Assembly (NCBI GenBank): GCA_049513715.1 | Contig: JBEKVV010000001.1 | Span: forward strand, 448,001-512,000 | Source: Candidatus Bathyarchaeia archaeon | GTDB taxonomy: Archaea; Thermoproteota; Bathyarchaeia; 40CM-2-53-6 | DNA length: 64,000 nucleotides | Reading direction: 5' to 3' | In this document: positions 13,628 to 51,279 of the stretch, one piece after another | Layout: every line of letters starts with the position of its first letter | Position numbering within the stretch: the stretch's first letter is position 1 | Program-made: the position numbers and the translations under genes | Notes under the pieces: model-generated | What the model was told of the DNA's origin: nothing | Databases searched by the model: none | What the model saw: the letters and a program-made list of their open reading frames with translations, nothing else

Positions 13628-13719
13628 TTCGACGGGTGAGAATAGGTTTCAGACTGCCCGTCGAATGCCATCACTGCGCTGGCTGAGAGCGCTCTGAACT
13701 TAAAGGACGCATTATCTTC
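13628..13719. repeat. ~90-bp structured direct repeat, copy A
   Basis: Similar to 15009-15095; TTCGACGGG/CCCGTCGAA and GCGCT/AGCGC stems. Confidence 0.85.
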
Positions 13720-13754
13720 CATGACCACTTTTGCTCAGTTAAGGGACGCAGCTT

Positions 13755-14444
13755 TCACATGAATTCGAGCATGCACGAGCCTCTGTAGATGCTATTGATT
13801 GAGGATGCTAGAACGCTCTTGATCTTGGACACCTCATAACTGGAGAATTTCTGTGATTGCTGCGGGAGAGGAGGAGCTTGCTGCAGCACCGAGAGTACTT
13901 GGCTGTAGATTGCAGCAAGGTCGCTGAAGCTGGCCTTCATTATCATATCAGTCTGTTTCGCTTCAGCTAGCGCTCCCCACTCGGTTAGGAGATGAGCACA
14001 AACAGCAGCATGAATTGCCAGCTGTCCATCTCCTGGCCGTAACTGGTGGTCTCCTCGAATGGGGACAGGGGCGATTGAATCATTCCACCTGCCTCGCAAT
14101 TCCTCTAGCCGGTCGGTCTTAGAATGGAATCTCTTCTCCAGTTCGAGTCTCAGCGCATAGTATTCTGCGAGAAAATCTACTGGGTTTCCGGTCAGTTCGG
14201 GGACTGCTCCGTTGATTCGTGTTTTTGAGGGTGGATACCCTAAGTGAAAGAGAAAAACATGAGCCCCCTCATGAAACAAAATGACCATGTCCAAAGATGG
14301 GTCACCTCTCACCTCAATGTGGACCTGACCATCCACAGGGCGAGGAATCGTGTGGGGAATCTCAGTGGCTTCAACAAACGTTAGGCTAAATTCAGCCTGA
14401 TCTATCTGCCAAATTCGCTTGATTTCCTCGGCAAAGTCTGGCAT
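13755..14444 (-). CDS. hypothetical protein with HExxH (ImmA/IrrE-like metallopeptidase) motif
   Basis: ILFHEGAHVFL; downstream DFLAEY. Confidence 0.6.
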   Translation of the reverse strand: MPDFAEEIKRIWQIDQAEFSLTFVEATEIPHTIPRPVDGQVHIEVRGDPSLDMVILFHEGAHVFLFHLGYPPSKTRINGAVPELTGNPVDFLAEYYALRLELEKRFHSKTDRLEELRGRWNDSIAPVPIRGDHQLRPGDGQLAIHAAVCAHLLTEWGALAEAKQTDMIMKASFSDLAAIYSQVLSVLQQAPPLPQQSQKFSSYEVSKIKSVLASSINSIYRGSCMLEFM

Positions 14445-14521
14445 GCCACTCGTTTCCTAGCTTGCGACAAATTCCTTCCATTCAGATAAAGGATGGTCAC
14501 ATTCCAACCAACATTGGGACA

Positions 14522-14938
14522 TTATGGGCCTTCCATGTGGAGCACTTCATCAGGCCAATTTCTGAGGCCGTGTGCTCTCAACATCATGAGTTCCCACTCC
14601 GCCCATCGAAGTGACAGTTGATGCAATATTCGAACCACCTGAGAGAGCGTGGCGTCATCTATGTAACCAAACCAACGACGCAAACGCGAATAATGTGAAG
14701 GAACGTACACAAGGACCACCTGAATCTTATGATTCTTGCCATCCGTGAACAAATCGCCAGCGAAATCAGAACGACGTTGGAAAGCCAATCGTACTGATGA
14801 TGAAAGTAAGGCGGGAGATTTCATCTCGACAAGCAGAAGCTCGAGAGACTTTGCAAAGAATTCGCTTCGTTCTTGGTGATTGGCAACATATGAAGAGATA
14901 CTGCTGAACCGTACAGCGTAATCGCGACCAATTCGCAT
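14522..14938 (-). CDS. hypothetical protein
   Basis: 138-aa ORF, no recognised motif. Confidence 0.45.
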   Translation of the reverse strand: MRIGRDYAVRFSSISSYVANHQERSEFFAKSLELLLVEMKSPALLSSSVRLAFQRRSDFAGDLFTDGKNHKIQVVLVYVPSHYSRLRRWFGYIDDATLSQVVRILHQLSLRWAEWELMMLRAHGLRNWPDEVLHMEGP

Positions 14939-15008: not shown

Positions 15009-15095
15009 TCGACGGGGGATAATGAATCAGTCTGCCCGTCGAAACGTCACTGCGCCGGCTGAGGGCGCTCTGCACTTAATGGACACATCATTTTC
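15009..15095. repeat. ~90-bp structured direct repeat, copy B
   Basis: TCGACGGG/CCCGTCGA and GCGCC/GGCGC stems; similar to 13628-13719. Confidence 0.85.
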
Positions 15096-15229
15096 GCGTA
15101 CGCAGTCCACTTCCAGACCGTTTGGAGATCTCTATCCATTAAATCTTCGGTAGCGCCTTGTGCCTTGGCATTTGGGTTTTGCTGCTTTGTTTTTCTGGGT
15201 CGTGAACTCTTGCAGTCGAGAGAGAGACT

Positions 15230-15252
15230 TGGTGGGGCCGGTGGGATTTGAA
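15230..15252 (-). mobile_element. tRNA 3'-end remnant (Pro-like), candidate att site
   Basis: Minus strand reads TTCAAATCCCACCGGCCCCACCA = T-loop, T-stem, acceptor strand, discriminator A and CCA; the rest of the tRNA is absent. Confidence 0.75.
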
Positions 15253-15301
15253 AGATTCCTCGACTAAGTTGCGTAGAGTAGTTGATGAAGGCGTGACATT
15301 A

Positions 15302-15673
15302 GCGCAATAACGACGATTCGTTGGAGTCAAGAAAAATGAACTCTGTAAGGCTACGAGTACTAATAGTACAAGTAAAAAGTTCGAGTTTGCGCGTAAAAAG
15401 TTCGTCGGCGAACATTGTCATCCTAGGGGAGTCCTACATTCCTTGACGATGCGAGAATGGTGAAACCCACCATTTCTAGGAACTACGGCCGTTTGAAGGC
15501 ATCTTTCACGTCTTTTCGTGTCAGTAGGCAGATTCTCGTGTGTCCTACGTCAAAACGTCAAGAAATCTGGTCGCGTCTCAGTGATGGCATGGACAAAACG
15601 GGCTTCAGCGCACCATTTTGGGCCTGCGTAAAAAGTTCGACTGATGGATAGTGAATTGGGCAGATTTGCGCGC
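15302..15673. repeat. ~370-bp structured non-coding direct repeat, copy 1
   Basis: Colinear with 19658-20027 over its full length, with substitutions and small indels. Confidence 0.92.
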
Positions 15674-15787
15674 CTTCCACCGAACGGAAAATTTGGAAGG
15701 GTGATCAAGGTCGCTTTCCTCAAGAAGACGGACGGCTCGAAACGATGTCGCTCTCGGCGTCTTGTTTTTGTCTCTTCGCGTTTGGTC

Positions 15788-16594
15788 TTACCATGGTGGG
15801 ATGTGGTCGTACACTCGACCGTTGAGTACGCGGCAGCCGTACGCCGGCTCATGAGAAGGTGTGCTAGGTGCTGTGGGATTCTTCGGCCTGTGACACGTAC
15901 ACTTTCTGTCCCCTCCGAGCTGCTTCAGCATGAAGGGAACTTTCGCTGCTTGGCACTGCTGGACCAGGTCTAGAAACCACTTCTCTTCTGGGCGGCGTGG
16001 AGGATGCTTCGAGTCCCCTGACTCTCCGCCCGTAATTACCCACCCCAAATCTTTGAGGTAGGGCCTGAGGTCTATTGGTCCGAGCAGTGGTTCTGCTGAA
16101 ACCCATTTCAGTTTTGCTGGGACCGCTTGCAGGAACTTGATGCGTGGCGCAAATTTATCTTTTTCAACGCTGACTCCTAACCAAACATTGTCGTAGCCGT
16201 TTGGACCCCAATCTGGGGGAAGGGAACTTTGAATGTGTCCTGGGAATTTTGTAGATATTCGATACGTGTGCCACCAGGTCTGCCGCATGAACTTCCAGGT
16301 CAATGGCCGCCACTTGTCTGCGACTGGGTCGTCCACGAAAAAATCGCTCCAAGGACAGATGAATACCATTTTCGGGTCTTGCTGCTTCCAGTAGAGGGGC
16401 TTCTTGAAGGAGTGTGGCGTGCCTAGAGTCACTTCGTGTTCGTGACCCCTGTACCGTTTGTAGCGGGGCATCTGGCGCACGACCGCATAGCAGTTCTCGC
16501 AACCATCGCTGATAGGGCCGGGGCATCCGTGCCAAGGCCCCCAGCTTTCGCCCATTTTCGTCGCTATCTGGATCGTCGTCGTCTTAACGCTCAT
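15788..16594 (-). CDS. DUF5131 / phage Gp37Gp68 family radical-SAM-like protein
   Basis: W.PWHGC...SDGCENCYA, FICPWSDFF, NVWLGVSVE, SAEPLLG, WVITGGESG, KQLGG; GGAGGTGA SD before MSVK. Confidence 0.9.
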   Translation of the reverse strand: MSVKTTTIQIATKMGESWGPWHGCPGPISDGCENCYAVVRQMPRYKRYRGHEHEVTLGTPHSFKKPLYWKQQDPKMVFICPWSDFFVDDPVADKWRPLTWKFMRQTWWHTYRISTKFPGHIQSSLPPDWGPNGYDNVWLGVSVEKDKFAPRIKFLQAVPAKLKWVSAEPLLGPIDLRPYLKDLGWVITGGESGDSKHPPRRPEEKWFLDLVQQCQAAKVPFMLKQLGGDRKCTCHRPKNPTAPSTPSHEPAYGCRVLNGRVYDHIPPW

Positions 16595-16724
16595 AGATTC
16601 ACCTCCTTCGTTTCTTGTTCCCGCATAATATTCTTGTTCCAATCAGAATCAGAGAAGCAACTGTTTCTGAACCTGAGCATGTCAGTGTTGGCCAGGCCAA
16701 ACACCCGACTATTCGCCCCTCTCC

Positions 16725-17207
16725 TCAACTCCAATTCATTGGGACGACTATCATGGTACTTTTCGAAATAGGAACGAACTCCGAACGCCGTTTCCTCGAA
16801 AATGGCATCTTATAACGGCTGCAGAGTTTCTCTATTATGCTCTCTGCTTCCTTGACGGCAGCTACTGGATCCGGCTGGTCATCGTCAACAATCAATTCGA
16901 TGTGGCATTGGAAATCCTGGCGGTCTTGGACGAGCCACGCGCTGCAACCCTTGTTTTCAAACAGCTCATTGAACTCCTCAAGCTTTTGATGGATCTCCAT
17001 CTCGTCGTAGACAGTTAGATTATCATCCAAGAAGCCCTCATCACCAAACGTCACTCCACATTCGAAGTAGCCTAGACGGAGCATCTCGTCGCGGCATTGC
17101 TTGCACGCCCAGCCCAGAAATTCAAAATCATGGGCTTGGTCAGAGTCTCTAGTATGAACACTCGACACCGCTCGTGTTGACCCGCACTTGAAGCACAGAT
17201 TCTCCAT
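16725..17207 (-). CDS. zinc-finger hypothetical protein
   Basis: CFKC...CKQC pair; lies within the minus-strand operon. Confidence 0.6.
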   Translation of the reverse strand: MENLCFKCGSTRAVSSVHTRDSDQAHDFEFLGWACKQCRDEMLRLGYFECGVTFGDEGFLDDNLTVYDEMEIHQKLEEFNELFENKGCSAWLVQDRQDFQCHIELIVDDDQPDPVAAVKEAESIIEKLCSRYKMPFSRKRRSEFVPISKSTMIVVPMNWS

Positions 17208-17242
17208 CGCTGCCTCCAGGGCACGCCCATCGATTGAAAGCG

Positions 17243-18655
17243 TTAGCATCGTTCAATCTCCTGCAATTCAATGATCCGAGTCCTCTGTGCGTGCGCGGCG
17301 TCGCTGAGAAAGACGGCTGGAAAGTCTTGACGAAGCAGTTTCACAGGGCGACCAGCGGTCGCAGGAGAAAAGACCTTCTGGAAAATGCAGCAAGCCCGTA
17401 GCCTGTGCCAAACCCTCGTGGCCAGAAGAATCCGTTTGCTGTACACTGTTCCGTCGGGTCGTGGTGTGACCGTCACGTGGTAGGACGCGATGTGTCCGCC
17501 CGGCCTGCAGACTCTGACGGCCTCGCGTATGTATTGGCTGTAGGTCAGCTTTCCGGTGCCGTAGCGGGCCGTCGCGTCCTCCTTGCTGTATGGAGGATCC
17601 GAGATGACTAGGGCGAACACGTTGTCTCGGAACGGAAGGTTGTGCGCGTCGGCCCGGACGTCTGGCGGCCTCCAATTCACTCCGGAGCCAAACCTCTCAG
17701 CCAGTGGATGGGTTGTTCTCAGGTCTATTCGCAGTCCGTACTCTCCCATTCCTCCGAACTGGTGCAGCACCGGCGTAGGATTGTCCAGCAAAGTGAGGAG
17801 TTTCTTCTCGAAATATCTCGGGAATCCGCCGGGGTACTTGTCGGGCTTTGGACGCGGAAGAACCCAGGCGAGTGTGGGGACGGGTGAATGTCTTGTCGGG
17901 CCGGTTGCGCCTCCGACTTCGAGTGCTTGCAGCCGCTTGGCGGCCAATGGTGTCGGACCGTTCCAGCCTTCTTTTCGCATCACGAAGGCGACCCTGACCT
18001 GGTGGCCGTTCTTTCCGTTTGGCGGCAAGCAGTAATCGCACTTGTTGCCGCACCATGTGTCCTCCTTTCGCCCGGTCAGCTTCACTCCGGGAAGGTCGGC
18101 GGGGCACACGTATTCGCCCGCCTTCGCCTGACTCGGCTCGTCTACGACCACGGCGTAATTGTCCGTCGCCTTGTCGATCTTGTCGTCGTCCAAGCCGCCC
18201 TCAGATTTTGTGACTGTGAAGTTCGGCAGAGCGGTCAGCGGTGAGAGGTCAAGGGCGGCGTGGCTCTTCGTGTAGTACCAGAAGCGGACGGCGGGCAGGC
18301 GGCGGGCTATCTCCGCCCAAGCTAGGACATAAGACTTCGTGTGGAAGTCTCCGCTCTCATGAACCCTTACGCCGATCAGCCCCACATCCAGTATCCTTGC
18401 GACCATCAGGTCTGTGAAGTCTCTCCTCAACGACGCACGAAGGTTCTCCCTCCATGCGGCCTTGACTTTTCCTCGGAGGCCCTTCAGAACCTTGAAAGTG
18501 TAGCAGAAGCCCAGGCACTGCCAGGCCCTCAGGCACGTTTCGGGTGCGGGCAGGCTCCAGTTTCCAAAAGCCGGGTGGATCTTTCTGTTTCCTTTGACAA
18601 GGTTGATCTTTTGGGCCGCCTGGCCCCACACGTTCGGACTATTCTTGCTTCCCAA
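17243..18655 (-). CDS. GP88-like Cys-rich domain fused to a DPPY-type amino-methyltransferase domain
   Basis: N-terminal WSLPAPETC, C..FCY, VRVHESGDF, WYYTK, C..C..C; C-terminal LHQFGG, DAHNLPF, SDPPYS, VCRPGG. Confidence 0.75.
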   Translation of the reverse strand: MGSKNSPNVWGQAAQKINLVKGNRKIHPAFGNWSLPAPETCLRAWQCLGFCYTFKVLKGLRGKVKAAWRENLRASLRRDFTDLMVARILDVGLIGVRVHESGDFHTKSYVLAWAEIARRLPAVRFWYYTKSHAALDLSPLTALPNFTVTKSEGGLDDDKIDKATDNYAVVVDEPSQAKAGEYVCPADLPGVKLTGRKEDTWCGNKCDYCLPPNGKNGHQVRVAFVMRKEGWNGPTPLAAKRLQALEVGGATGPTRHSPVPTLAWVLPRPKPDKYPGGFPRYFEKKLLTLLDNPTPVLHQFGGMGEYGLRIDLRTTHPLAERFGSGVNWRPPDVRADAHNLPFRDNVFALVISDPPYSKEDATARYGTGKLTYSQYIREAVRVCRPGGHIASYHVTVTPRPDGTVYSKRILLATRVWHRLRACCIFQKVFSPATAGRPVKLLRQDFPAVFLSDAAHAQRTRIIELQEIERC

Positions 18656-18788
18656 TATTTTTCACTGGGAAGCACCTTGAATTTCGCGGGCAGTATCCCG
18701 CGCATTCACCGCGCACTAGTCCGGAGGGGGTGCGCGACATCAAGAATAATACGGCGGGGAGCCACGGCTACTGTGTGGTGTCCGCCAG

Positions 18789-19385
18789 ATGGTTCGCCGA
18801 TTGAGGACTACTATTCTCTATTTTCTCGTCGAGGAGCGTCCTTCACCGAAGAGGAGCAAGCGTGGGCCAGCGTGGCGCGACGAGTGCTGGAATGCGACCT
18901 CTCTGTCCAACCAGAAGAAATTGAATCCGACTTCGGTGCTTAAGGTTGTCAGCAAGTTCCGCGCCTGCGGCCTTCTGGAGCCCGAGCCCTCGTCCGCGAA
19001 GCTGGTTGAAGAACGGCTTGTTCCGACGAGGACAGAGACGAGGTCGAGGCGCACAGTCTCGACTTTTCGGGGAGCCGTTCCATGCCGCCCGACCGAGAAG
19101 GGGCGCAGGCTCGCCAAGATGATGAGGGCCATCGAAGAGAACAAGATGATGCCGGAGGAGTTCTCCGAGGACGAGGACAGAGCGGCCGAGAACGAGAAGA
19201 TCGTTTCCCGCCTCGCAGCAGCAGGCTTCACGCGGGAGGACTACGAGGCCGCCATTGAGTGCGGATTGATCGCTGAGGAGTCGAGGATGTTCAGTCGTCC
19301 GACAGTCGGATTCAGGCAGCCCGGCCTGAGCGCGGCCGACCTCGTGAGCGTCGAAGTCGCCAAGTACCGTCATCGAGTAACGTAG
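18789..19385 (+). CDS. winged-helix DNA-binding protein
   Basis: TSVLKVVSKFRACGLL...PTEKGRRLA wHTH pattern. Confidence 0.55.
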   Translation: MVRRLRTTILYFLVEERPSPKRSKRGPAWRDECWNATSLSNQKKLNPTSVLKVVSKFRACGLLEPEPSSAKLVEERLVPTRTETRSRRTVSTFRGAVPCRPTEKGRRLAKMMRAIEENKMMPEEFSEDEDRAAENEKIVSRLAAAGFTREDYEAAIECGLIAEESRMFSRPTVGFRQPGLSAADLVSVEVAKYRHRVT

Positions 19386-19657
19386 GGTTCGGCCGCCGGT
19401 CCGCCGCCGTCGACCACTGACGTCCGATTCCGCGAGATAATCTGAAAGATCTGAAAGCTAGGCGTGAAGTTCCTCGCACCCGGAGAGCTCAGCCGGATCA
19501 TGTCCGTCATCGACAAGGGACGAAACTCCTACAACCAGCGAACTATCCGGACCAAGGTTCGGCGGTTCAAGCGGAAAAAGAAGCAACCGAAGTAATCATC
19601 GCATTTCCCATCACAGCGGCTCGCGCTTTCTATCTCGGCCGACATTTTTTACCTGAC

Positions 19658-20027
19658 GCGCAATAACGCCGATTCGTTCTAGTCAAGAAAAATGAACTTC
19701 GTGAGCCTGAGAGAAAGTGAAAGTAATGAAAATGTTCGAGTTTGCGCGTAAAATGTTCGAGTTCGAACTTTTTATTCATAGGGGAGCCCTACGTTCCTTG
19801 GCCATGCGAGAATGGTGAAACCCATCATTTCTCGGAACTACGGCTGTTTGAAGGCGTCTTTCACCTCTTTTCGTGTCAGTAGGCGGATTCTGGTGTGTTG
19901 GACGGCAAAATGCCAAGAAATTTGGTGCGTCTGAGCGGTGCCATGGACAAAAAGGGTTCCACAGCACCATTTTGGGCCTGCGTAAAGAGTTCGACTGAGG
20001 GTCAGTGAATTGCGCGTATTTGCGCGC
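19658..20027. repeat. ~370-bp structured non-coding direct repeat, copy 2
   Basis: Colinear with 15302-15673. Confidence 0.92.
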
Positions 20028-20068
20028 TCATTGCGCGTTTGAAACGAACAATGCGTTATCTTGATCCT

Positions 20069-20275
20069 CTACGTTATTTGAGTGCAGAAGAACCCGCGTA
20101 CAAAATTCTCGTCTGCCAGTTCGGATTGCGCCAGACTGCACTTTCGGCATCCTATTGGAATTGAAGGTGCGAAGCTCGATGACAACGAGTACACAACGAG
20201 AGTCTCTCTACCGTAAGAGGGGAACACACCGGAGGAAGGCACGCATTCAGAAGCGTGGACGGACCCAGTGTTCAT
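20069..20275 (-). CDS. small hypothetical protein (CxxC)
   Basis: ATG overlaps the stop of the RHH gene; CRKC. Confidence 0.3.
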   Translation of the reverse strand: MNTGSVHASECVPSSGVFPSYGRETLVVYSLSSSFAPSIPIGCRKCSLAQSELADENFVRGFFCTQIT

Positions 20276-20454
20276 ACCCTTTTGGCGATCCAGAGCCTAA
20301 GCGCCTCCTCTACGGCTCTTTGAATGTCGCCCTTGTGTAATCCAAACTTCTTGAAAACTGTTTCGCGAAACTCATGTTCGAGTGACTCTGATACTGTCAA
20401 GTTGAGTCGCACAGTTCTTTCCTCCCCACCTTTCTTCGCTTTGCCTTTGGCCAT
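20272..20454 (-). CDS. ribbon-helix-helix protein
   Basis: VRLNLTVSESLEHEFR...GDIQRAVEEALRLWI. Confidence 0.85.
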   Translation of the reverse strand: MAKGKAKKGGEERTVRLNLTVSESLEHEFRETVFKKFGLHKGDIQRAVEEALRLWIAKRV

Positions 20455-20624
20455 GTGAGAAACGTATGCACGTATATGGGTATAAGCGTTTGCACGTTCC
20501 AATTCTGTGCTCTTTCCGCGTTGTCGGCCTGTTTTGGAACGGAACTTTGTCCACAATTCTACGCTTGATCATGCTATTTTTGTCTGCTTTAATACTATAC
20601 AAACAGAGCTTTCGGCAATCTCTG

Positions 20625-20813
20625 TTGAGAGAAGAAAGGCAACTCGTCGACTGCGATGGTCGACCTCATGAACGCAAAAGGGGCCGAGAGAAGGAACTTT
20701 TTCAGTGCGAGTGCGGCTGGATGCTCATTCTTGTGCCGCCTCCGCCTCACTGTCTGAACAGGCGTTGCCGAAACTATCGGCCGCCTCAACTTTCCATCTG
20801 GCGAGGCGACTAA
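20625..20813 (+). CDS. small zinc-finger protein
   Basis: CECG...HCLNRRC; TATA-like TTTAATA ~30 bp upstream. Confidence 0.45.
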   Translation: MREERQLVDCDGRPHERKRGREKELFQCECGWMLILVPPPPHCLNRRCRNYRPPQLSIWRGD

Positions 20814-21154
20814 CTTTAGCACAGCTCTACGTTCGAGCAAAGGAGCCTGAAGGTCGATGGCCTCAGAGCTTCAATCGGACAGTCCGGATCGAGGACTCGG
20901 CCGGCCTGGTATTCCAGTCTCGTAGGGTCATCCGAGACCGTGTTCTATTGGCCTCCAGCACCGTTGGGAGGAAGCAGAACGTTGGAGGACGAAAAGGCTA
21001 CGCGGCGAAGTTCGCCGACCGGTTGACAGGCGAGGTCTACGAGGAGGTGTTCTTCGACTCGGGAGACGCGTGTCGGTGGTGCGATGCCTGCGAGCTGGCC
21101 GCCTTGAAGCGGGCCGAGAAGGCCGCCGCAGGGCCAGTCAACTTGAGCGGCTGA
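20705..21154 (+). CDS. hypothetical protein (true start probably near 20810)
   Basis: Open frame between two zinc-finger ORFs on the same strand. Confidence 0.4.
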   Translation: MRVRLDAHSCAASASLSEQALPKLSAASTFHLARRLTLAQLYVRAKEPEGRWPQSFNRTVRIEDSAGLVFQSRRVIRDRVLLASSTVGRKQNVGGRKGYAAKFADRLTGEVYEEVFFDSGDACRWCDACELAALKRAEKAAAGPVNLSG

Positions 21155-22919: not shown

Positions 22920-22939
22920 GCGTTTTCTCAGGAAAACGC
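22920..22939. repeat. palindrome GCGTTTTC-N4-GAAAACGC, copy 2
   Basis: GCGTTTTCTCAGGAAAACGC. Confidence 0.8.
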
Positions 22940-23039
22940 GCTCCGCAGAAAGGCTTGGCAGGGCATCCGGGTGCCTTGCGTTATTATCGGTTCACTAGGC
23001 GAACTAACCCGTTCCTTAAATTCGCAGCGAAAGGTGAGG

Positions 23040-23474
23040 GTGAGAGCCTTGACAGGCGAACCGACCAGGGCATTCAGCCAAAAGGCCGACCTACTTGAGG
23101 TCTTCCGCTGGGAGCCGTCTACATATTTCACCAATCTGCAGGCAGAGGTAGCCGAGGAGATAGTCCTCTTCCTTCGCAACAACGGAAAGGACACAGGGCA
23201 GGAAACATACACGCACTGGAGGAGCGGCGATGTGTGGAGACTCGTCAGGGTTTCCCGCGCAGCGTTCCACAAGTTTGCTGAGTCGCAGAAGCTGTGCAGC
23301 TCACGGTACGTCTGGAAGGTCATGAGAAAGCTGGTGGCCCTCGGCTACGTTCGAGTGTTCACTCTGAAAGGGCAGAAGGGCTACGGCCTCGTTGTCAACG
23401 CCATGAAGCGGCACAAGGTGTCCGCGAGCCGCTACGAAAAGTTCATGGCACCATTGAGAAAAACGGCGAGTTGA
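23040..23474 (+). CDS. winged-helix DNA-binding protein
   Basis: SRYVWKVMRKLVALGYVRV...GYGL wHTH pattern; AGGTGAGG before GTG. Confidence 0.55.
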   Translation: MRALTGEPTRAFSQKADLLEVFRWEPSTYFTNLQAEVAEEIVLFLRNNGKDTGQETYTHWRSGDVWRLVRVSRAAFHKFAESQKLCSSRYVWKVMRKLVALGYVRVFTLKGQKGYGLVVNAMKRHKVSASRYEKFMAPLRKTAS

Positions 23475-32478: not shown

Positions 32479-32513
32479 GCGGGCCAAATCCAATAATGTT
32501 CCCGAACGAAATG

Positions 32514-32656
32514 TCAGCTCTTGCGGAGCCTTGGGTTCAACACCTCATCCAATGCATACCCTAGGCAAGTGAACGCTAAGACTATGAACGCTATGCATAC
32601 ACCCGGAGGAATCACATACCAGTAAGCCCCTGCAAATAAGGCACCACGTGAGAACG
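32514..32656 (-). pseudogene. 3' fragment of an oppC paralogue (near-duplicate of 36540-36682)
   Basis: FSRGALFAGAYWYVIPPGVCIAFIVLAFTCLGYALDEVLNPRLRKS. Confidence 0.85.
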
Positions 32657-36520: not shown

Positions 36521-36539
36521 TATCTACTAGAACACAATG

Positions 36540-37418
36540 TCAGCCCTTGCGGAGCCTCGGGTTGAGTACCTCATCGAATGCATACCCTAGGCAGGTGAAC
36601 GCCAAGACTATGAGCGCTATGCATATACCCGGGGGAATCACATACCAGTAAGCCCCAGCGAATAGGGCGCCACGTGAGAACGCAAAGTTCAGCATTGTTC
36701 CCCAGCTCAGCCGCGTTGGGTCACCCAGACCTAGGAAACTAATAGTGGCCTCCGACAGGATCGCTGAACCAATAACCAAGACTGTGTTAGCGAAAAGCAG
36801 CGGCAGAATACCGGGCAAGACGTGGCGCAATATTATGTGGCGTTCAGATGCGCCTAGGGAACGAGCCCGCAACGTATATGACAGCTCACGTATAACCAAC
36901 GTTTGTGAACGGGCAATTCTAGCGGTTCCGGGCCAACCAAGAATTCCGATAACGAAGATAACATTCCAGATGGTTGAGCCCAACAGAGCAGCTAGTATTA
37001 TGATCAATGGAAGCGCGGGAATGATCAAGAAGATATCGATGAAACGAACCAGCACTGTCCCCAATATTCCACGGTAGTATCCTGAAAGCAAGCCAACGAT
37101 GGTCCCTACGACCACCGATATTGTTGCTGCCAACAATCCAACAAGGAGCGATACACCCGCGCCCTTCAAAACTTGGCTCAGCACATCGCGGCCAACATCG
37201 TCCGTCCCGAAAGGATGAGCCCACGATGGTGGATTGAGGATCTCCGCGAAGGTGCCCACGCCCGATGTCTCGTAAGGCGTAAAGAAATTGCCAATCAGCG
37301 CCATAATAACGAAAACCACTAGCATGACCAAGCCAATCATGCCTAGAGAATTTGCGCGGAAGACATTCCACAAGCCTGCGAATTGTCTCTTGTAGATTCC
37401 GAACTTTTCGGTGTACAT
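36540..37418 (-). CDS. peptide ABC transporter permease (OppC/DppC)
   Basis: HPFGTDDVGRD, ARSLGA, SFLGLG. Confidence 0.93.
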   Translation of the reverse strand: MYTEKFGIYKRQFAGLWNVFRANSLGMIGLVMLVVFVIMALIGNFFTPYETSGVGTFAEILNPPSWAHPFGTDDVGRDVLSQVLKGAGVSLLVGLLAATISVVVGTIVGLLSGYYRGILGTVLVRFIDIFLIIPALPLIIILAALLGSTIWNVIFVIGILGWPGTARIARSQTLVIRELSYTLRARSLGASERHIILRHVLPGILPLLFANTVLVIGSAILSEATISFLGLGDPTRLSWGTMLNFAFSRGALFAGAYWYVIPPGICIALIVLAFTCLGYAFDEVLNPRLRKG

Positions 37419-43592: not shown

Positions 43593-44951
43593 TTGGGTAA
43601 GCTGTTTCTGTCGATAAGTTACGGGAAGGATGATGAATGGTTAGTGGAGGTCATTAGAAGCGAGTTTGGCGTTCATGGTATTGAGTGCGTCATAGCCCAA
43701 GAGATCTCTAAGACTCCCCCGCTACCGGTTATACTGAACAAAATACAAGCATCAAACGGTTTTCTAGCGGTGATCACTTCCAACGAGAGCGACTGGATTC
43801 AGAACGAGATTGGTATGGCCTATGCAGCATATGGAGACAGAAAACCGATTTACGGCTTAGTTGAAGAAGCAGTGCCTAAAGTCGGGGGAATTCTTCCCCT
43901 CGTGTGCAAGTACCATCGGTTTTCCAAATCAAATACTGTCGAGTTGCGGAAGCTGCTTGTTGAAATCGCAAGGGAATTTACACCGGAGGCTGCTGTTCAA
44001 ACGCACGGCGTTGTTGCGGTTTCTCCACAGCCTTGGCCTTATCGGGCTACTCAAGACTCAAGGTACCCCGTTGGGGAAGGAACGGAAATTCTAACATCAA
44101 CGGACGACCACCAGAATACAGTCAGAGTATTGGTGGCAGTAAGGCCTCATGAGGTTCTTCACGGGGATGAGGTTGTGACGGTCTACATCCCGCCGCAGTT
44201 TGACCTGACATCACCTCTGAACAATCCTTCTGAAGAGATCCACACAGATTTGCCAGCTTCTGCGGGTGACATAATGATTACAGTGAACCCTGACGAGGAT
44301 CCCAATTATCCAGGATTCTGGGTTGTGAAGGCCACGCTCAGATTCCCCGAGGCTCAGTCTTCGTTGAAAGGGGGATGGTTCAGCTTCAGGCTTTCGCAAG
44401 TCGTCGCTCCTAAGGTGGCGGGCACATACCGGTTCTACGGCAGAGATGAGATACTGGTCGTCGGGGTTACGCCTACACCGTCTCAGTTTGACTTCCACCC
44501 TATCTATGTCAAGGGTGAGTACGTGACTTGGAGTCTGTCAGGGATATTATTCCTCTCGAAAGACAAACCGTTGACACTGCCGGCTGTTGTCTGGGCAACT
44601 GGTACCGCAGCGGTTCCATCGACGCATCAGTCAACTGGCAGGAAGGTCACATCGGTTTGCTATGTAACTTCCAGGGAGAAGGGCCATTATGCTCTAGACC
44701 TCGCTCCAGGTGTCTATGACCTGTATGGTGGCGCGCTTGGCTATTCCCAATTTCTCATCGCGTCAGAACTGTCGATGTTCGAGCCTAGGGAATTGAACGG
44801 ATTTGTTCTCCATTCGCTATCCCGGGCTGATGTTTCCCTTCAGGCGAGGGAAACGATAAGGAAATGTCATTACTGCGGCGCAGAATTCTCACCGACCGAC
44901 ATAATCTGCGGGAAATGCGGCACGCCCGCTACAGACCTCGAAACTCACTGA
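43593..44951 (+). CDS. TIR domain + beta-sandwich (surface-protein-like) region + C-terminal zinc ribbon
   Basis: LFLSISY...D, SDWIQNEIGMA (TIR catalytic Glu context); CHYC...CGKC. Confidence 0.75.
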   Translation: MGKLFLSISYGKDDEWLVEVIRSEFGVHGIECVIAQEISKTPPLPVILNKIQASNGFLAVITSNESDWIQNEIGMAYAAYGDRKPIYGLVEEAVPKVGGILPLVCKYHRFSKSNTVELRKLLVEIAREFTPEAAVQTHGVVAVSPQPWPYRATQDSRYPVGEGTEILTSTDDHQNTVRVLVAVRPHEVLHGDEVVTVYIPPQFDLTSPLNNPSEEIHTDLPASAGDIMITVNPDEDPNYPGFWVVKATLRFPEAQSSLKGGWFSFRLSQVVAPKVAGTYRFYGRDEILVVGVTPTPSQFDFHPIYVKGEYVTWSLSGILFLSKDKPLTLPAVVWATGTAAVPSTHQSTGRKVTSVCYVTSREKGHYALDLAPGVYDLYGGALGYSQFLIASELSMFEPRELNGFVLHSLSRADVSLQARETIRKCHYCGAEFSPTDIICGKCGTPATDLETH

Positions 44952-45169
44952 CAGGTACCAACGGAATCCTAAGACGGCCAGAGCTAACCCAAAACTAGCC
45001 CAGACGGAATATTCCTTGCCAGAGACTCACATAAGACATGGTTTGGTTTTCCCGGCTCTAGGCTCAAACCAACTGACATTACACTAGAGACCCTAACCTT
45101 CTAACAATACTGCTTTTTTCCATCGGATTTCTGGCCCGCTTTTAATACCTTGCGAAGTATGAGAAGTAA

Positions 45170-45445
45170 GTGAAAGACATGGCGAAGCGGATACGACTTC
45201 TTGACGAAGAAGATCCCGCAATCAGAATCGTCGGATTCGTCGGCGGGTCTAAGTCCATCACCATTCCGACGGAGTGGTGCGGCGACCTCGGCATCGCGCA
45301 GGGGGACTATGTCGTCCTGTGGCGAGGAGTCTACGAGGGCACAAAGCACGGGTCAGTTGTGGTTATCCAGAAGTTGAACGCGGGGGCCACGCACCGTGAC
45401 GGCCGGCAAACCCAAACCCAAGGGAAGGCTGGGACTAGTGGCTGA
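45170..45445 (+). CDS. AbrB/MazE-family DNA-binding protein
   Basis: GGSKSITIPTEWCGDLGIAQGDYV. Confidence 0.75.
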   Translation: MKDMAKRIRLLDEEDPAIRIVGFVGGSKSITIPTEWCGDLGIAQGDYVVLWRGVYEGTKHGSVVVIQKLNAGATHRDGRQTQTQGKAGTSG

Positions 45446-46304
45446 CCAACGCAAAGTTACAACAAGCCTCGCCACTACCATCTACGATGACCTGAAGTCG
45501 CTGGCCGATGAGCGCGAGCTTTCCGTCGCCGCGATGCTCCGGCAACTGACAGTGATGGGAGTCGCCGAGGAGAAGACGCCTGTGATGCCGCTCGGAATCG
45601 AGGCTGGCTTCGGGCCTCCGCATCTTTACTTCTTCGGCACTACCGGCCAGGGCAAGTCAACCGTCATCGACGAGTACGTGATCCCACGCCTCGGACGCGG
45701 ACGGCGGACGGTTGTCTTGACCGACAGCAGCGACGACATCAGGAAGATCTACCGGGACGCGTTCAAGGTAGTGCTCCTCGCTTCGAGCCGGAAGTTTCCG
45801 TCGTTCGACAACGAACGCTACGAGGAGATTAAGGCACTGCAGGCCGAACCGGAGTTTGAGGCGGAGGTCAGCAGGGCGATTAATGCCGTGGTGGACTCAA
45901 GACATCGGAAGATCATCGTCGCGGTTAATGCGCCTGACAAAAGGGCGAAGAAGTGGCTTGTGAACTCCTTCATAACGGAAATAGTCGGCCGTGACTGGGG
46001 CAACCCCGGACTGCTCTTCGTCGTCGAGGACGCACACAAATACGACTGCGAGGAGCTAGTCGGCAGCGGCCGAAAGAATGGCATAGTGGCCGTCCTCGCG
46101 GGCGTCAAGGAACCCGATGAAGACACCTCGCGGAACACTCGCCTCGTCCTCGGCCCGGTCGGAACCGCCACGGCGACCCGAATCGACCCGACAATCGTGG
46201 CGATATCGAAGCGGCTCGGACGAGGAGAATTCCTCTGGCAGTACTCGGCCGGACGCTGGGCAAGGTTCCGGCACGAGAAGCGGAGGGAGGCGAGGAAGCG
46301 GTGA
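45396..46304 (+). CDS. RHH domain + FtsK/HerA-superfamily P-loop ATPase
   Basis: N-terminal RHH (LKSLADERELSVAAMLRQL); GTTGQGKS, LFVVEDAH, GRKNGI. Confidence 0.75.
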   Translation: MTAGKPKPKGRLGLVADQRKVTTSLATTIYDDLKSLADERELSVAAMLRQLTVMGVAEEKTPVMPLGIEAGFGPPHLYFFGTTGQGKSTVIDEYVIPRLGRGRRTVVLTDSSDDIRKIYRDAFKVVLLASSRKFPSFDNERYEEIKALQAEPEFEAEVSRAINAVVDSRHRKIIVAVNAPDKRAKKWLVNSFITEIVGRDWGNPGLLFVVEDAHKYDCEELVGSGRKNGIVAVLAGVKEPDEDTSRNTRLVLGPVGTATATRIDPTIVAISKRLGRGEFLWQYSAGRWARFRHEKRREARKR

Positions 46305-46347
46305 CGGGATTCTTGGTCGCCGACTGTCCGAGCTTCGTAATGCACCC

Positions 46348-46478
46348 GGTTCTGTTAACTTGGCTGGGGTGCCGAGCATTTTCTTGCCCATTGTTAACCG
46401 CTTAGGGGGTTCTGTTCTGGTTCTGCTAACTTGAGTGGGTGGCAAAACTGACTTATCTAGATGTTAACTTGTGGGGGG
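46348..46478 (+). repeat. left motif array GGTTCTGYTAACTTG...GGG
   Basis: Copies at 46348, 46419 and 46460, plus a partial at ~46391. Confidence 0.7.
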
Positions 46479-46724
46479 CCACATTTCTGAACAAACCCTC
46501 CGACCAAAAACATTCTATACATCGTGAGTAGAGTAAGAAATCGGTCGAAACATTGTCTGGCAAAGACGATCAAGACTACGCACCAGTAGACGATGCTCTT
46601 ATCAAACTCAGAGAAAAAGAAAAGAAGAAAAAAGTGAATGTAACTGAAAGCGAGTCGGGTCAACAACCAGACCAGAAGTAACTCTTCTGAAATCGAAAAG
46701 CGCAAACTGTTCTACAATTATTCA

Positions 46725-47198
46725 ATGCAGACCAATAGTTGGCTACAAGATTCCAATGAGAGAATTAGCGCGAAATTTTCCAATGTTATTGTGTTGAACT
46801 CAAGTGTGCTTACGATACTATTTGGCTTGGGATATTTCCTATTTCAAAATAGACTGAATCTTAGCAATTATGGGTGGCTTACTGTTGCTCTTCCAATATT
46901 CTTTGCCTTGTGTCTTTTCATTTTCATATTAGCGATTGCAGTGGGCGTATTTTACTATCGACCAGTGGATTTCAACTTCGCCGACCCTATGGTACTTGTT
47001 GACACTCTAAAGGGGGTGCCATACGCGATTACTTTGAGTCGAATAGCGGCTACAATCGCAAAACAGGTTTCCAAAAACCGAGAGGTTGTAAACAAGAGAG
47101 GCGCTCATCTTGAATGGGTTATGACCCTAACAGCTATCGGGTTCTTCTTGATGTTTCTCACAGGGTCTTTGCTAGTCTACCTTTGGATGCTTTCTTGA
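46725..47198 (+). CDS. membrane protein (3 TM)
   Basis: Three TM segments with a soluble loop; AT-rich. Confidence 0.6.
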   Translation: MQTNSWLQDSNERISAKFSNVIVLNSSVLTILFGLGYFLFQNRLNLSNYGWLTVALPIFFALCLFIFILAIAVGVFYYRPVDFNFADPMVLVDTLKGVPYAITLSRIAATIAKQVSKNREVVNKRGAHLEWVMTLTAIGFFLMFLTGSLLVYLWMLS

Positions 47199-47335
47199 TG
47201 AGGCGATTCGCGCCCTCCATTTCAGAAGAGATGGAACGAGCCTTAGAGAAGGAACGCAAGAAGCGGATGCTAGATTCCATCCCAGAAACGGCTAGGGTAA
47301 TCATCAGCGAGTATTTGACTAGGAATTATGGGTAG
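47198..47335 (+). CDS. 45-aa ribbon-helix-helix protein
   Basis: MRRFAPSISEEMERALEKERKKRMLDSIPETARVIISEYL. Confidence 0.65.
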   Translation: MRRFAPSISEEMERALEKERKKRMLDSIPETARVIISEYLTRNYG

Positions 47336-47543
47336 GTGGAACAAGTGGAAGAAGCCTTAGCGGTAGCACAACCACTAATCCAAACCGGAGCACGCATGGA
47401 AATGTGGTGCGGTATAGTTCCTCGAACACGAACAAATACACCTACTGCCTTTTTGTCACTTCCGGTTGCCTGTCTCAGTGACAAAGATGAAATAGGAGTA
47501 CGATGTCAGAGTATTTCTCACTTGATTGGAGGCTTGAAATAAG

Positions 47544-47729
47544 ATGTCTGGTGTAGGAGGAGCTGTATTGGTGCGCGTCATTCCTACTGGAACTGGATCA
47601 AAAAGAATTACCATTCCGAAAACTCTCTTAGAGGATGTGTTAGGCGACAGCGAATATGCTTTGATCGGCAAGGAAGAGGACGGTTTACTGATTCGGCCTG
47701 CCGAAATAAGGGCAGCTAAGAAACGTTAA
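47544..47729 (+). CDS. AbrB-like small protein
   Basis: GSKRITIPKTLLE...GLLIRPA. Confidence 0.65.
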   Translation: MSGVGGAVLVRVIPTGTGSKRITIPKTLLEDVLGDSEYALIGKEEDGLLIRPAEIRAAKKR

Positions 47730-47762
47730 AATAGGACATGGTGTAGTGTCACCGTATCTACG

Positions 47763-47984
47763 GTGACATTGAACATGGTGGAACTGCGTGTAGGAGCTGA
47801 CACCACAGAATTTCTAGCTAAATTATTCGCAGCCGTAGTTGTAATTCACATCCTCGCCGCAGTCTTGTATCTGCCATTTTACACGTATCTCACACAACAG
47901 GAATGGATGGTTCTTTCCGATTTCATCAATGCAGTTGCGAAGGCACTTCGGGATTTCTTTGGTTCCTTCCTCGGATTCCTCTAG
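47763..47984 (+). CDS. small membrane protein
   Basis: TM helix plus amphipathic C-terminus. Confidence 0.5.
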   Translation: MTLNMVELRVGADTTEFLAKLFAAVVVIHILAAVLYLPFYTYLTQQEWMVLSDFINAVAKALRDFFGSFLGFL

Positions 47985-47994
47985 GGGATGTTTG

Positions 47995-48162
47995 ATGATG
48001 AAACCGAAAGACGCAGCGTTAATCGCGTTGATTGTTGAAGGTGGAGCTTGGCTATACCAACGATTGCAGAATCATCCGCTTGAATGTTCGTGCGGAGGAT
48101 GTGTCGCGATTAATCTCTCGATTCCAATGACACTGTCGTTCTGTCTTGGTGAATCAAAATGA
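47995..48162 (+). CDS. small hypothetical protein (H..ECSCGGC)
   Basis: Overlaps the next ATG; part of a compact operon. Confidence 0.45.
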   Translation: MMKPKDAALIALIVEGGAWLYQRLQNHPLECSCGGCVAINLSIPMTLSFCLGESK

Positions 48163-48419
48163 AAAAAGAAGCGATGACGCAGATAGTCAATGAGGAACTA
48201 GCGCATATTCCGAGAACGGGTAGGCACATCTATGATGCTCAAGCGCAACTACGAGGAATGTACAACGCCATGCGGAGACATGGCCTTAAGTTCGGCAAAA
48301 CGAAGGAAAGAACTCTAGTAGAGTGTATCGAGTTTTTGAGGAAAGATCATCCGTCTTGGCAACCAGTGTTTGACAAAGCATTCTTCCTCATGCAAGAGTC
48401 AGAGGTGATTCAGTCTTGA
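48159..48419 (+). CDS. hypothetical protein
   Basis: 86 aa; overlapping start/stop with both neighbours. Confidence 0.6.
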   Translation: MKKEAMTQIVNEELAHIPRTGRHIYDAQAQLRGMYNAMRRHGLKFGKTKERTLVECIEFLRKDHPSWQPVFDKAFFLMQESEVIQS

Positions 48420-48664
48420 GCTATAGAGTAGGTCGAAGTCGAATGTTTACGAGGCGAAACAACCCCCGGTACTACAGGCTAGGGCACATTCCGCGTTCCA
48501 AGATTCAACCTTCAAAGATTGGGGATGCGATAATCGATAAAGTCGTCCCCGATCATGCCGAAATCAAAGTCGGTGGGCCTGCTCCATTCCCACGAGCAAA
48601 GGTTGAATGGGACAGGGAAAAGAAGGTACGAATCTCTCAACTTCGTAAGCGGTTCCTTGAGTAG
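48416..48664 (+). CDS. basic hypothetical protein
   Basis: GAGGTGA SD upstream of TTG; Arg/Lys rich. Confidence 0.5.
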   Translation: MSYRVGRSRMFTRRNNPRYYRLGHIPRSKIQPSKIGDAIIDKVVPDHAEIKVGGPAPFPRAKVEWDREKKVRISQLRKRFLE

Positions 48665-48668
48665 GCAA

Positions 48669-48719
48669 CCCCCCACGAGTTACCAGACCAACAAACCACC
48701 CATTGAAGTTACCAGAACC
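48669..48719 (-). repeat. right motif array (inverted relative to 46348-46478)
   Basis: CCACCCATTGAAGTTACCAGAACC matches the reverse complement of 46419-46442 at 21/24. Confidence 0.7.
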
Positions 48720-48891
48720 ATGCACCCCCCACCCCCACTGCGAAAGGGCAAAAACCGGAGGAATACGTAGGTTTCCGCGCATTCCAGCCCTTTTTTCTCC
48801 GGTTGGTTTGGCTATCAGAAACTTGACGACACTTAGTTTGCGCGGCCAAACAGGTGGTGCTCGCTCCGCTGCCTCAGATCATTGAATATTG

Positions 48892-49422
48892 TTACCTATT
48901 GAATCGTTCAAGAAAGAGAAGGCAGAAGATGGCGAGGGCAATTCCACATAGAATGGACAGAAACACAGCGCCATTCCCTGTGAGACAATGCGCCCACAGG
49001 CTAACGGATATGATTGTTGCAACATTAGAAGTCGCCCCCAGTAGTAAGCGGAGCACAATCAGAAGACCAATAACAGCCAAAAATATTCCTTGAAGGATTT
49101 TCGATAGGAATTCCAACTTAAGGTTTGACCATTGTGCAAGCAAGGATGGTCTTAGCCGAATTGCAATAAGAACTATGCCCGTCGCAAACGGCAGCAATGT
49201 GAGAAACGATTGATTCTCGGCAAAAGACCAGAAGGTTTCCAGTGTCGGCTTCTCAAAGAAAGTGCGAACGATGCTATTTCCTTCACATTCGCCGAACCCA
49301 AGGTGAACGAATAGCGCAGATGTTCCTCAATCCAAGAGAACGGAAATCGCATACAACACTATTAGGGATGCAAAGCCTCGCTGGCTTCGGATATTCTTAA
49401 GGAAAGCAAACATTACGATCAT
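48892..49422 (-). pseudogene. DUF5658-like membrane protein with an in-frame TGA
   Basis: ...VLLD*GTSALFVHLGFGECEGNSIVR...; stop at 49327-49329. Confidence 0.5.
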
Positions 49423-50126
49423 CTTTCAAGATAAGGTGCTGCAGCACTTGCAATATTCTAGTCGGTTTCGCGACGACGCGCATTTTCGCCATTCGAATTC
49501 GTGACTGTGGGCCTATTCGCTCGTTGGGGGGCCAAGGGCCAACGTACTTCGACATAGCCAACTATCGCTCTTCTAGCTTGCGTCTCGCAACTTAGCGTTG
49601 TCTCCGATGGATACTGGTCGGCATGAATGGCGGGTGTGGGACAACGCGGGCGAGTCTTGCGACATCGAAGAACGCAGAGTTCAACGACGCCACTACTCGC
49701 CGGTCGCCCCGGTCGGATACAGACAGTAGCGCTCAGCATTAGCCTCTTACAGGTCTGCTGTTAGCGCATCCAATCTCTACGTTGAGTATTAAAAGACCGA
49801 AGAAATTCATGCATCTGAGATTAGAGACAGCAAGGGACAAACTGTTCAGCTCACTGGTGTCCCTACCGACACTTGGGGGCGGCCGCCTGAAACTTGGGCC
49901 GGGTTGGAGACGGAGCGGTAGCGGCCTAGGGCTGAAAGTGAAAGGGATTGGAAAGTGGGGGGCCGCTGCCGAAACAGAAGGCGGGAGATGGGAGGGTGAG
50001 CGGAAGCGGGTGGAAAGGGGAATTGAAAGGGGAGCAAACGGGAATTGAGCGGGAAGAAAAGCATCATGGCCAAGATCATACAAAGGGCCAAAAGGGCCAA
50101 AGTGTCGGCGGACGGACGCTCGCCGG

Positions 50127-50285
50127 TCAGACATTCTCGACGATCAGCCGCTTGCCTTCGACTTTGAGCTTGACCTCTCCCTTTTCGTCAGGCAGGGGGA
50201 ACTGCGAGTCCCCGCTGATGATGATCGGCACATAGATCAGGAATCGTCCGTCCGCTCTCCAATAGCTTCCCTTCCCTTCCAGCAT
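50127..50285 (-). CDS. 52-aa AbrB-like protein (DSQFP type; not in ORF track)
   Basis: MLEGKGSYWRADGRFLIYVPIIISGDSQFPLPDEKGEVKLKVEGKRLIVENV. Confidence 0.7.
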   Translation of the reverse strand: MLEGKGSYWRADGRFLIYVPIIISGDSQFPLPDEKGEVKLKVEGKRLIVENV

Positions 50286-50391
50286 TGTCGTTTGCCGCGT
50301 CTCTGGAAGAGATACACTTATTTGTTTCTTCCTACGTATAACCCTGCGTCTAACGGCACGTTGAACTCTTCGTTAGACACGAAACTTCCAT

Positions 50392-51279
50392 GTGAGAAAG
50401 AAAGAAAAAGGAGGCGTTCCGAGAATGGCTTTGAGCGTAGTGGTTCGAGTCCGTCTGAGCCGGAAGGTTGAGGAGATCGTCGGGTCTCCGTCCTGGGGCG
50501 GACGCGACAGGTTTCTGGAAAGAGTGAGTTCGTGCTGGCTGTACGCCGAACCCAACCGGAAGTGGGATGGTAAGCGATGGATTGACCTTGGAATCCGGCA
50601 GGTTTTGGTGGCCGGCAACGCGAAGCTGATCCTTGCTCCGCGTGACGGGCAGACTTGGCAGTGGGACGCCACAGACATCTACCACGCGGGGAAGAACGAC
50701 TGGGCGGTCGCCATCGCCGGCCAGGAGGCTGAGGCCGAGTTTCTATCGTCCGATGCCGCGTGCATGGAAACCGTAGGAAAAGAAGTCGTCGAGGCTGCGC
50801 CGACAGTTCAGCCGATTGCTCCCGCGTCTCAGGAAGCGCCGAAAACGCCGATCAGAAAGTGTCCGAAGTGCGGGGCCAGCCAAAAAGAAGAAGCGAAATT
50901 CTGTGACGGTTGCGGGGCGAAGCTTCCCGAATTCCTTGTCCGGGAGTTCGCCATAGTTTTCTTCGACGACCGTGAAAAACTGGCAGAGTTTCAGGACGCG
51001 AGGGTCAACGCGGCCCTTGTCCGCGCAGAGAGGGGTAGGAAGGTCAGCCGACAAGTCCTATTCGATGACCGCTACGCCGTTCTTCTCCGTGCTTCGGCTA
51101 AGGATGCGAGTTCGGCAGCGGACTTGGACACTCTTCGAGCAGTATTCGCAGAGTTCGAGGACGGAACGAAGACGAAGTACGGCGAAGTCCTTACGGACGC
51201 TTACGAACTAAAAACACTGCGCAAGATGCTGCTCGAAAAATATCCCGAGTCGGAGCTGTGGCGCGGGGACGAAGAGTAG
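50392..51279 (+). CDS. zinc-ribbon domain hypothetical protein
   Basis: CPKCGA...KFCDGCGAKL. Confidence 0.7.
   Translation: MRKKEKGGVPRMALSVVVRVRLSRKVEEIVGSPSWGGRDRFLERVSSCWLYAEPNRKWDGKRWIDLGIRQVLVAGNAKLILAPRDGQTWQWDATDIYHAGKNDWAVAIAGQEAEAEFLSSDAACMETVGKEVVEAAPTVQPIAPASQEAPKTPIRKCPKCGASQKEEAKFCDGCGAKLPEFLVREFAIVFFDDREKLAEFQDARVNAALVRAERGRKVSRQVLFDDRYAVLLRASAKDASSAADLDTLRAVFAEFEDGTKTKYGEVLTDAYELKTLRKMLLEKYPESELWRGDEE

Follow-up and report, generated by a model that had tools for sequence, protein, structure and literature searches.

A paired, previously undescribed 370-nt module in a bathyarchaeial genomic island and its possible role as a protein-docking DNA site

What is the role of a module of about 370 nt that stands twice, in diverged form, around the cargo genes of an archaeal genomic island? 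The question is raised by positions 15302-20027 of a 64,000-nt stretch of the genome of a Candidatus Bathyarchaeia archaeon (assembly GCA_049513715.1, contig JBEKVV010000001.1, positions 448,001 to 512,000 of the forward strand; 'the window' denotes this whole stretch, and positions are counted from its first letter). An initial annotation had read the module as a conserved multibranch structure of the plus strand, and as a candidate RNA, single-strand origin or single-strand promoter. The module is real, discrete and previously undescribed, with two known copies. We give an even chance to its being a cis-acting site in duplex DNA, i.e., an origin, resolution or partition site of small archaeal integrative elements; within this reading a replication origin takes about half of the weight, and a resolution or recombination site and a partition site about a quarter each. 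The origin idea of the initial annotation survives as an array of boxes in duplex DNA, and less so as a single-strand signal. To our knowledge, hardly any origin, resolution site or partition site has been described for archaeal cryptic elements other than those of the Sulfolobales.

Profile search and alignment of the pair placed both copies on the plus strand where they had been proposed, copy 1 at 15302-15673 and copy 2 at 19658-20027, with 82.8% identity over 373 alignment columns. Substitutions and indels between them, as initially described, are present: differences occupy 67 of 372 columns, namely 26 transitions, 39 transversions and two gaps of one base. The similarity begins with GCGCAAT and stops at TTTGCGCGC; copy 2 has an extra TTGCGCGT after its end (20031-20038). 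A profile search of the 2.79-Mb genome with the pair returned these two copies only (next best match E=1.4), and the repeat is far beyond chance. Regarding the assembly, a 5426-nt contig covering both copies, with zero variant letters and chromosome-level depth, was present in four of four runs (all possibly source data); as far as contigs show, an assembly artefact is not indicated. The contigs of these four runs, which drop rare forms, held no junction or excised form between the copies. The sequence is present in 24 listed runs, all of peat or wetland DNA; no RNA run is among them, which says nothing for or against expression.

The differences between the copies are clustered (variance 7.6 vs 2.8; none of 5000 random placements was as high) and the clusters fall outside the boxes described below. 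This clustering, together with ends that lie on the same inverted motif, supports the earlier view of a discrete, constrained mobile-element module, most likely non-coding and without known family. A divergence of 17%, clustered, around intact cargo genes is more easily reconciled with two homologues that came from different elements than with a single old duplication. The two copies may derive from two related elements: a unit of 4.36 kb, comprising one module, a DUF5131 gene, a gene without family, a GP88-methyltransferase gene, a winged-helix gene and a short open reading frame (ORF), would have become joined to a second remnant, either through tandem insertion or through a single crossover of the modules.

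A pair of this kind might also be functionless by now. It could be a transposon-like unit, small and non-autonomous, or a local duplication that is drifting, or it could consist of integrase arm sites belonging to the nearby tRNA tail. Such a history would agree with the short inverted motif at the ends (9 bp in copy 2), with a tRNA-tail fragment 50 nt from copy 1 and with an identity of 83%, which is within the range of 71-90% of other segments common to these elements. However, no target-site duplication was seen by eye at either copy, only two copies exist, both in one island, the tRNA tail is absent beside copy 2 and the differences are strongly clustered; we regard this explanation as very doubtful.

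The search for homologues proposed by the initial annotation yielded no true one in genome, phage, plasmid, viral or metagenome sequences. Among 400 genomes of the class there was a single 24-nt match; a sequence-only model gave one weak match in 104 genomes of the order, inside a protein gene, and none at 19 related-element loci; phage and plasmid collections gave no match to the module. Pattern scans returned 1 and 16 viral stretches, none extending beyond the pattern, and 16 metagenome loci, of which 10 were near-identical to the window and 6 due to chance. The palindrome pattern matched in 5 of 22 same-genus genomes, with four loci in protein genes and none aligned past the pattern. With the neighbouring proteins as bait, viral scans gave six loci in total, for the methyltransferase part only, and scans of genome collections gave none. 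No description of the element was found in the literature (subscription papers and supplements were outside this search).

Boxes, tracts and a candidate binding protein

Each copy contains four boxes of the type AAAAWGTTCG, namely a pair 21 bp apart, an inverted one 4 nt past the second, and a last one about 235 bp farther. In copy 1 the left cluster spans 15374-15418, with AAAAAGTTCG at 15374 and 15395 and an inverted box with one mismatch at 15409-15418, which forms the palindrome GTTCG-N4-CGAAC; the fourth box (15630-15639, plus strand) is directly preceded by GCGT. In copy 2 the cluster spans 19729-19773, with boxes at 19729 and 19750 and the inverted box at 19764-19773, and the fourth box is AAAGAGTTCG (19984-19993, plus strand). 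A motif recurring three times per copy had been reported before; it was recovered in forward orientation (one of the six, at 19984, with one mismatch to AAAAWGTTCG) and a fourth, inverted occurrence was found in each copy. The extended form GCGTAAA[AG][AT]GTTCG occurs four times in the 2.79-Mb genome, always inside the two copies, and AAAA[AT]GTTCG occurs 19 times, the six in the copies being its only clusters. Regarding the palindrome, the copies agree in none of the four spacer bases, and each of them has outer arms that are mismatched at the W position (A.A and T.T), while each half matches the box consensus. Kept halves, the W mismatch and a changed spacer fit binding half-sites better than a stem.

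In both copies the left end bears the motif TTGCGC in inverted orientation, and the motif also occurs once inside the left box cluster; a motif search located three of them at the right end of copy 2 (20010-20038, plus strand), spaced by 10 and 11 bp. The ends, which had been described as paired, carry one and the same motif in inverted orientation; read from the sequence, it is 6 bp in copy 1 and 9 bp in copy 2. A4+/T4+ tracts number eight in each copy, a count reached or exceeded by 0.33% of genome windows, and are phased at 10.5 bp (R=0.69, p=0.017 in copy 1; R=0.78, p=0.004 in copy 2). Phased A-tracts bend DNA, and iterons have a period of 21-22 bp. Helical phasing of direct repeats as in iteron-type sites is found here in the boxes (21 bp), the TTGCGC motifs (10 and 11 bp) and the tracts.

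From the boxes, the tracts, the sharp ends, the position at gene ends and the tRNA-tail setting we infer binding, bending and function as follows. Both the palindrome and the direct boxes, which are separated by two helical turns, would be bound by a dimeric winged-helix protein encoded at 18789-19385. The TTGCGC motifs, with their spacing of one turn, may be recognised by a ribbon-helix-helix protein, and the A/T tracts would bend the DNA into a nucleoprotein complex; if the site is an origin, it may be served by a primase-helicase of the element family.

The winged-helix protein belongs to a small unnamed family. A search with it gave 11 matches at E<=0.001, among which are the protein itself and a repetitive one, so that there are about ten relatives, P0002 being 76% identical; the repetitive match (P0011, 1986 aa) was left out of the family alignment (A4). 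Its predicted structure has a pLDDT of 66; the best fold matches were MarR-type regulators, with AspA, which binds a plasmid centromere, at rank 22 (E=0.24), and no match to a known initiator was obtained.

GP88, the family of the neighbouring fused methyltransferase gene, is present in 9 of 400 genomes of the class. One same-genus genome, G016, encodes GP88 (51% over 250 aa) and a divergent winged-helix relative in two frames (E=5.8e-7 and 1.1e-4) in the same layout, and the 320 non-coding bases behind this winged-helix gene share a 13-mer and one AAATGTTCG box with the module. Among control windows (n=8241), 47 and 43 contain one of the two and none contains both. In 58 genomes of the family the 13-mer was found at 13 places, vs 4 for a control, with the exact box nearby at the G016 place only. 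The similarity is a lead only, because the 13-mer recurs elsewhere.

Two other GP88 elements, one in this genome (L041:14318-14501) and one in genome G015 (L074:2318-2499), contain non-coding arrays of five boxes after an operon of GP88, methyltransferase and putative helicase genes. The 21-bp box and a spacing of about 30, 53, 52 and 30 bp are kept in these arrays, and the spacers have changed; of 20 tests that aligned the five-box array with the module, only the best gave a score matched by as few as 1 of 200 shuffles. Their presence in other GP88 elements indicates that box arrays are a habit of these elements. The five-box array is better conserved than the module and is the stronger candidate for an origin or resolution site.

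Several observations weigh against a duplex DNA site in the module. No third copy was found in 60 related genomes. The winged-helix model matched no solved structure at E<=0.001, and no initiator, helicase, integrase or ParA was recognised at 13.6-24.4 kb of the window. A sibling element elsewhere in the genome, which has integrase-like and primase-polymerase genes, lacks the module. The G016 stretch does not align with the module above shuffles overall (75-182 of 200 reach its score on the same strand), and 12 further, unrelated occurrences of its 13-mer are spread over 10 other genomes. Regarding the tracts, three of the eight are parts of boxes, phasing with a free period gave p = 0.10 and 0.02 for copies that are not independent, and 2 of 20 matched genome windows reach the phasing value of copy 1. 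Finally, the box-free central 190 nt are conserved like the rest and carry a weak folding signal.

Folding and coding capacity of the copies

An alternative to the duplex site is a structured plus-strand non-coding RNA with paired ends and a multibranch core, to which proteins would bind at the boxes. The plus strand folds better than the minus strand in both copies (z -1.25 in copy 1 and -2.23 in copy 2 vs -0.35 and -1.78), and its energy was reached by 10 of 100 and 2 of 100 shuffles, respectively, a mixed outcome for the comparison with shuffled controls that had been proposed; these z-scores are inside the genome background. The best (minimum-energy) folds of the two copies differ and have only some local hairpins in common; the conserved multibranch structure was not confirmed.

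Because the differences are clustered, the tests on the pair used a null that preserves clustering, in which the observed pattern of change was shifted along one fixed copy. RNAalifold gave the pair a consensus energy of -76.4 kcal/mol and 91 pairs, three of them with two-sided change, with a structure conservation index of 0.65. With copy 1 fixed, the consensus energy was reached by 2 of 120 controls (2 of 70 in a smaller set), and 32 shared helices of at least 6 pairs were counted vs 18.1+-4.6; with copy 2 fixed, however, 27 of 120 controls (15 of 70) reached the energy and 13 of 60 the helix count. Two-sided changes were at chance level, their number being reached in 64 and 82 of the 120 controls, respectively. 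The minus strand showed nothing exceptional against the same controls.

The remaining plus-strand signal lies in a central domain (15428-15606; copy 2 counterpart about 19783-19960). The helix that closes it, 15428-15434/15600-15606, retains 7 pairs despite three swaps between G-C and G-U, and the covariation term of the central 190 columns was reached by 3 of 150 and 5 of 150 controls; the region was chosen afterwards, and the central pieces folded alone gave z -0.56 and -1.34. The stems named by the initial annotation are present and able to pair in both copies, except that TGGTGC/GCACCA occurs as written in copy 2 only (TGGTCGC in copy 1), and the two G-C/G-U swaps reported within them are real. 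Among their 41 pairs there are two one-sided changes and no two-sided change, and the invariant pairs are uninformative because the stems had been picked for being kept; of the postulated selection on plus-strand folding, the weak central signal is what remains. The Rfam scan gave no match in the window at gathering score and five weak ones (E<=10) in 15200-20200, none inside the copies. The folding signal is faint, and RNA folding is weakly supported and short of demonstration. A structured RNA is accordingly considered unlikely; the broader idea of an undescribed 370-nt plus-strand RNA gene or folded single-strand origin, with its four motifs bound by the new winged-helix family, retains a small but real chance.

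A single-strand origin or priming signal, i.e., a pRN1-type stem-loop or an ssi site read by the primase-polymerase of a helper element, is quite unlikely. When the extra motif is included, the DNA fold of copy 2 has z -3.50, and a related element of the genome encodes a Prim-Pol protein; plasmid pRN1 requires a 100-nt stem-loop behind its primase gene (PMC4234260). The value for copy 2 falls, however, to -2.58 at the module ends and to -0.91 once the terminal motifs are removed. For copy 1 it is -1.2, and of 76 random genome windows 5 reach -2.2 and 2 reach -3.5. There is no long stem-loop common to the copies, and the primase-bearing element has no module.

Coding was considered for a frame of 64 codons in copy 1 (15457-15651, plus strand), which could be a small protein gene with an upstream operator that has decayed in copy 2. 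Of its 22 changed codons, 10 are synonymous, where 23% would be expected (p=0.008; p=0.033 if the best of all six frames is taken), but the region was picked post hoc and a 1-nt gap breaks the frame in copy 2. No homologue was found (in a search limited to lengths 35-112), there was no PHROG match, and Atlas scores equalled the level of shuffled proteins; such a gene is decidedly improbable.

Four further candidates were rejected: a box C/D RNA, as copy 2 no longer has the C-like box seen in copy 1; a CRISPR leader, as there is no array; a retron RNA, as no reverse transcriptase was recognised; and a chromosomal ORB origin, which was considered from the sequence and dropped.

The surrounding island and other features

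A tRNA 3'-tail fragment resembling an attachment site (15229-15252, minus strand), one of 14 similar stretches in the genome, precedes copy 1 by 50 nt. Between the copies lie a DUF5131 gene (PF07505, phrog_2045; 15788-16642, minus), which ends 115 nt from copy 1, a 174-aa gene without family (16725-17249, minus), the gene for GP88 (PF17338) fused to a DNA-methyltransferase-like domain (17243-18655, minus), the gene for the candidate box binder (18789-19385, plus), 270 nt before copy 2, and a short basic open frame (19480-19596, plus) followed by a T6 tract just ahead of copy 2. On the far side, a ribbon-helix-helix gene (20272-20556, minus; RHH_6, E=7.9e-5, below the curated cut-off) points at copy 2.

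Every gene adjoining a copy ends there and none starts, with DUF5131 and the ribbon-helix-helix gene coming from the right and the winged-helix gene and short ORF from the left. This argues against the proposed archaeal counterpart of Frpo-type single-strand promoters, a barely credible explanation, to which the length, the paired ends and the nearby methyltransferase gene lend a resemblance to plasmid leading regions (PMC11541004). No relaxase or transfer gene and no oriT was recognised in the island, although in a decayed element loss is possible. No TATA-like box is common to the copies; the same pattern also missed the divergent promoter region between the GP88 and winged-helix genes.

The island shares two segments within 20502-21126 with the sibling element (L037:9835-18313 = C1:94.8-103.3 kb), namely 20502-20603 (90%) and 20625-21126 (71%), and the primase-polymerase gene that lies between them in the sibling is absent from the island. 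The common backbone ends on the right with a second putative winged-helix gene (22923-23474, plus), whose protein is 90% identical to its sibling counterpart; this family has 19 further members with about 50-90% local identity, and none was found in 58 genomes of the family or 400 of the class. The sibling is apparently fuller, with a Prim-Pol/CHC2 protein, a winged-helix gene and then type I restriction-like genes; its putative integrase-like gene was assigned from sequence, with no integrase match in Pfam. With the primase gene missing and an integrase unrecognised, the island is taken to be a decayed integrative element. No ParA or ParB family matched among the island proteins.

The G016 locus (L072/L073, C2:~358-377 kb) is a larger GP88/winged-helix element, with a frameshifted winged-helix gene followed by a 14-bp inverted repeat, and a tRNA-tail fragment at L073:7171. 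More short-repeat families lie between cargo genes at L039:4699-12920 and L040:4742-8042. A block of about 2.6 kb occurs twice (C2:73061-75712 and C2:147028-149679) with the same proteins and a ribbon-helix-helix-like frame.

Left of copy 1, the members of a second repeat pair (13643-13720 and 15023-15095, minus; 80% identity over 91 nt) read as box C/D guide RNAs absent from Rfam. Their guides match the 16S rRNA of the genome at C1:242365 and C1:242857, and their first guide recurs in a third candidate at C1:809.3 kb. By eye, an insertion of about 50 nt, possibly a short intron, seems to be present in the 16S rRNA gene where one of the guides has its target (C1:242315-242365). Two genes without family between the guide RNAs (13755-14938) look inserted, because in a contig of a related organism about 40 letters separate 13750 from 15008. 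Elsewhere in the window, a 153-nt direct repeat (32504-32656 and 36530-36682, 89%) flanks a methyltransferase fragment, a peptidase gene and ABC-transporter genes, 43593-54442 is a second island of mobile-type genes (a weak TIR match, DUF932, zinc ribbons), and a 14-nt tandem repeat ends an adenine deaminase gene (59590-59701). The window also encodes RadA and GatD/GatE (archaeal) and a trimethylamine methyltransferase fragment; ARAGORN, with intron search on, reported a putative tRNA-Pyl (CUA) at C2:419817-419913.

Comparison with known systems

Cryptic integrated elements of Thaumarchaeota are similarly small and tRNA-associated, and encode an integrase with a primase-polymerase or only a winged-helix candidate initiator; for many of them no replication protein can be named, and tandem integration is known for casposons and proviruses (PMC6563490). 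In the accessible part of that source no cis-acting module is described, and the island here, unlike those elements, lacks a recognised integrase or primase.

Iteron-type origins, as in phage P4 and RSF1010 (PMC4234260), resemble the module in direct repeats two turns apart, an adjacent winged-helix protein and A/T tracts. The module differs in having two tandem boxes, one inverted box and one 235 bp off, no long AT-rich unwinding stretch and no helicase in the island. The origin of pRN1 is likewise non-coding, lies behind a replication gene and belongs to a family with primase-polymerase and ribbon-helix-helix genes, but it consists of one 100-nt stem-loop without iterons (PMC4234260), whereas the module is dominated by boxes and its island has no primase gene.

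The AspA centromere of Sulfolobus plasmid pNOB8 offers a dimeric winged-helix protein, a palindromic site and a footprint of more than 200 bp, but it lies upstream of aspA in an aspA-parB-parA cassette (PMC5120986); the module lies downstream of its winged-helix gene, has no ParA/ParB and shows a weak fold match to AspA. Resolvase res sites and integrase arm sites have several short boxes, phased bends and a direct-repeat pair around cargo; the module has no adjacent recombinase, and a core-like site in a tRNA tail stands beside copy 1 only. Frpo and ssi promoters, too, come in several diverged versions, each a few hundred bases long, with methyltransferase genes nearby (PMC11541004).

In its mode of action the module would most resemble the cis-acting sites of small plasmids and of cryptic integrated elements. 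By the features tested, it is outside the Rfam families, pRN1-type origins, the AspA cassette and Frpo promoters. If the RNA reading were true, it would represent a new large RNA class of archaeal mobile elements, outside Rfam. If the duplex reading is true, it defines the sequence of a box and names a candidate protein, of a new winged-helix family, that would bind it, both testable in vitro without a cultured host; this would be useful to specialists rather than surprising, and it points to the better conserved five-box array. That array shares with the module the host genus, GP88 cargo, a TGCGCGT core in its boxes and the place behind an operon, and differs in its 21-bp near-palindromic box and its spacing. 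The evidence favours an ordinary part in a new form, namely a protein-docking DNA region of a mobile element.

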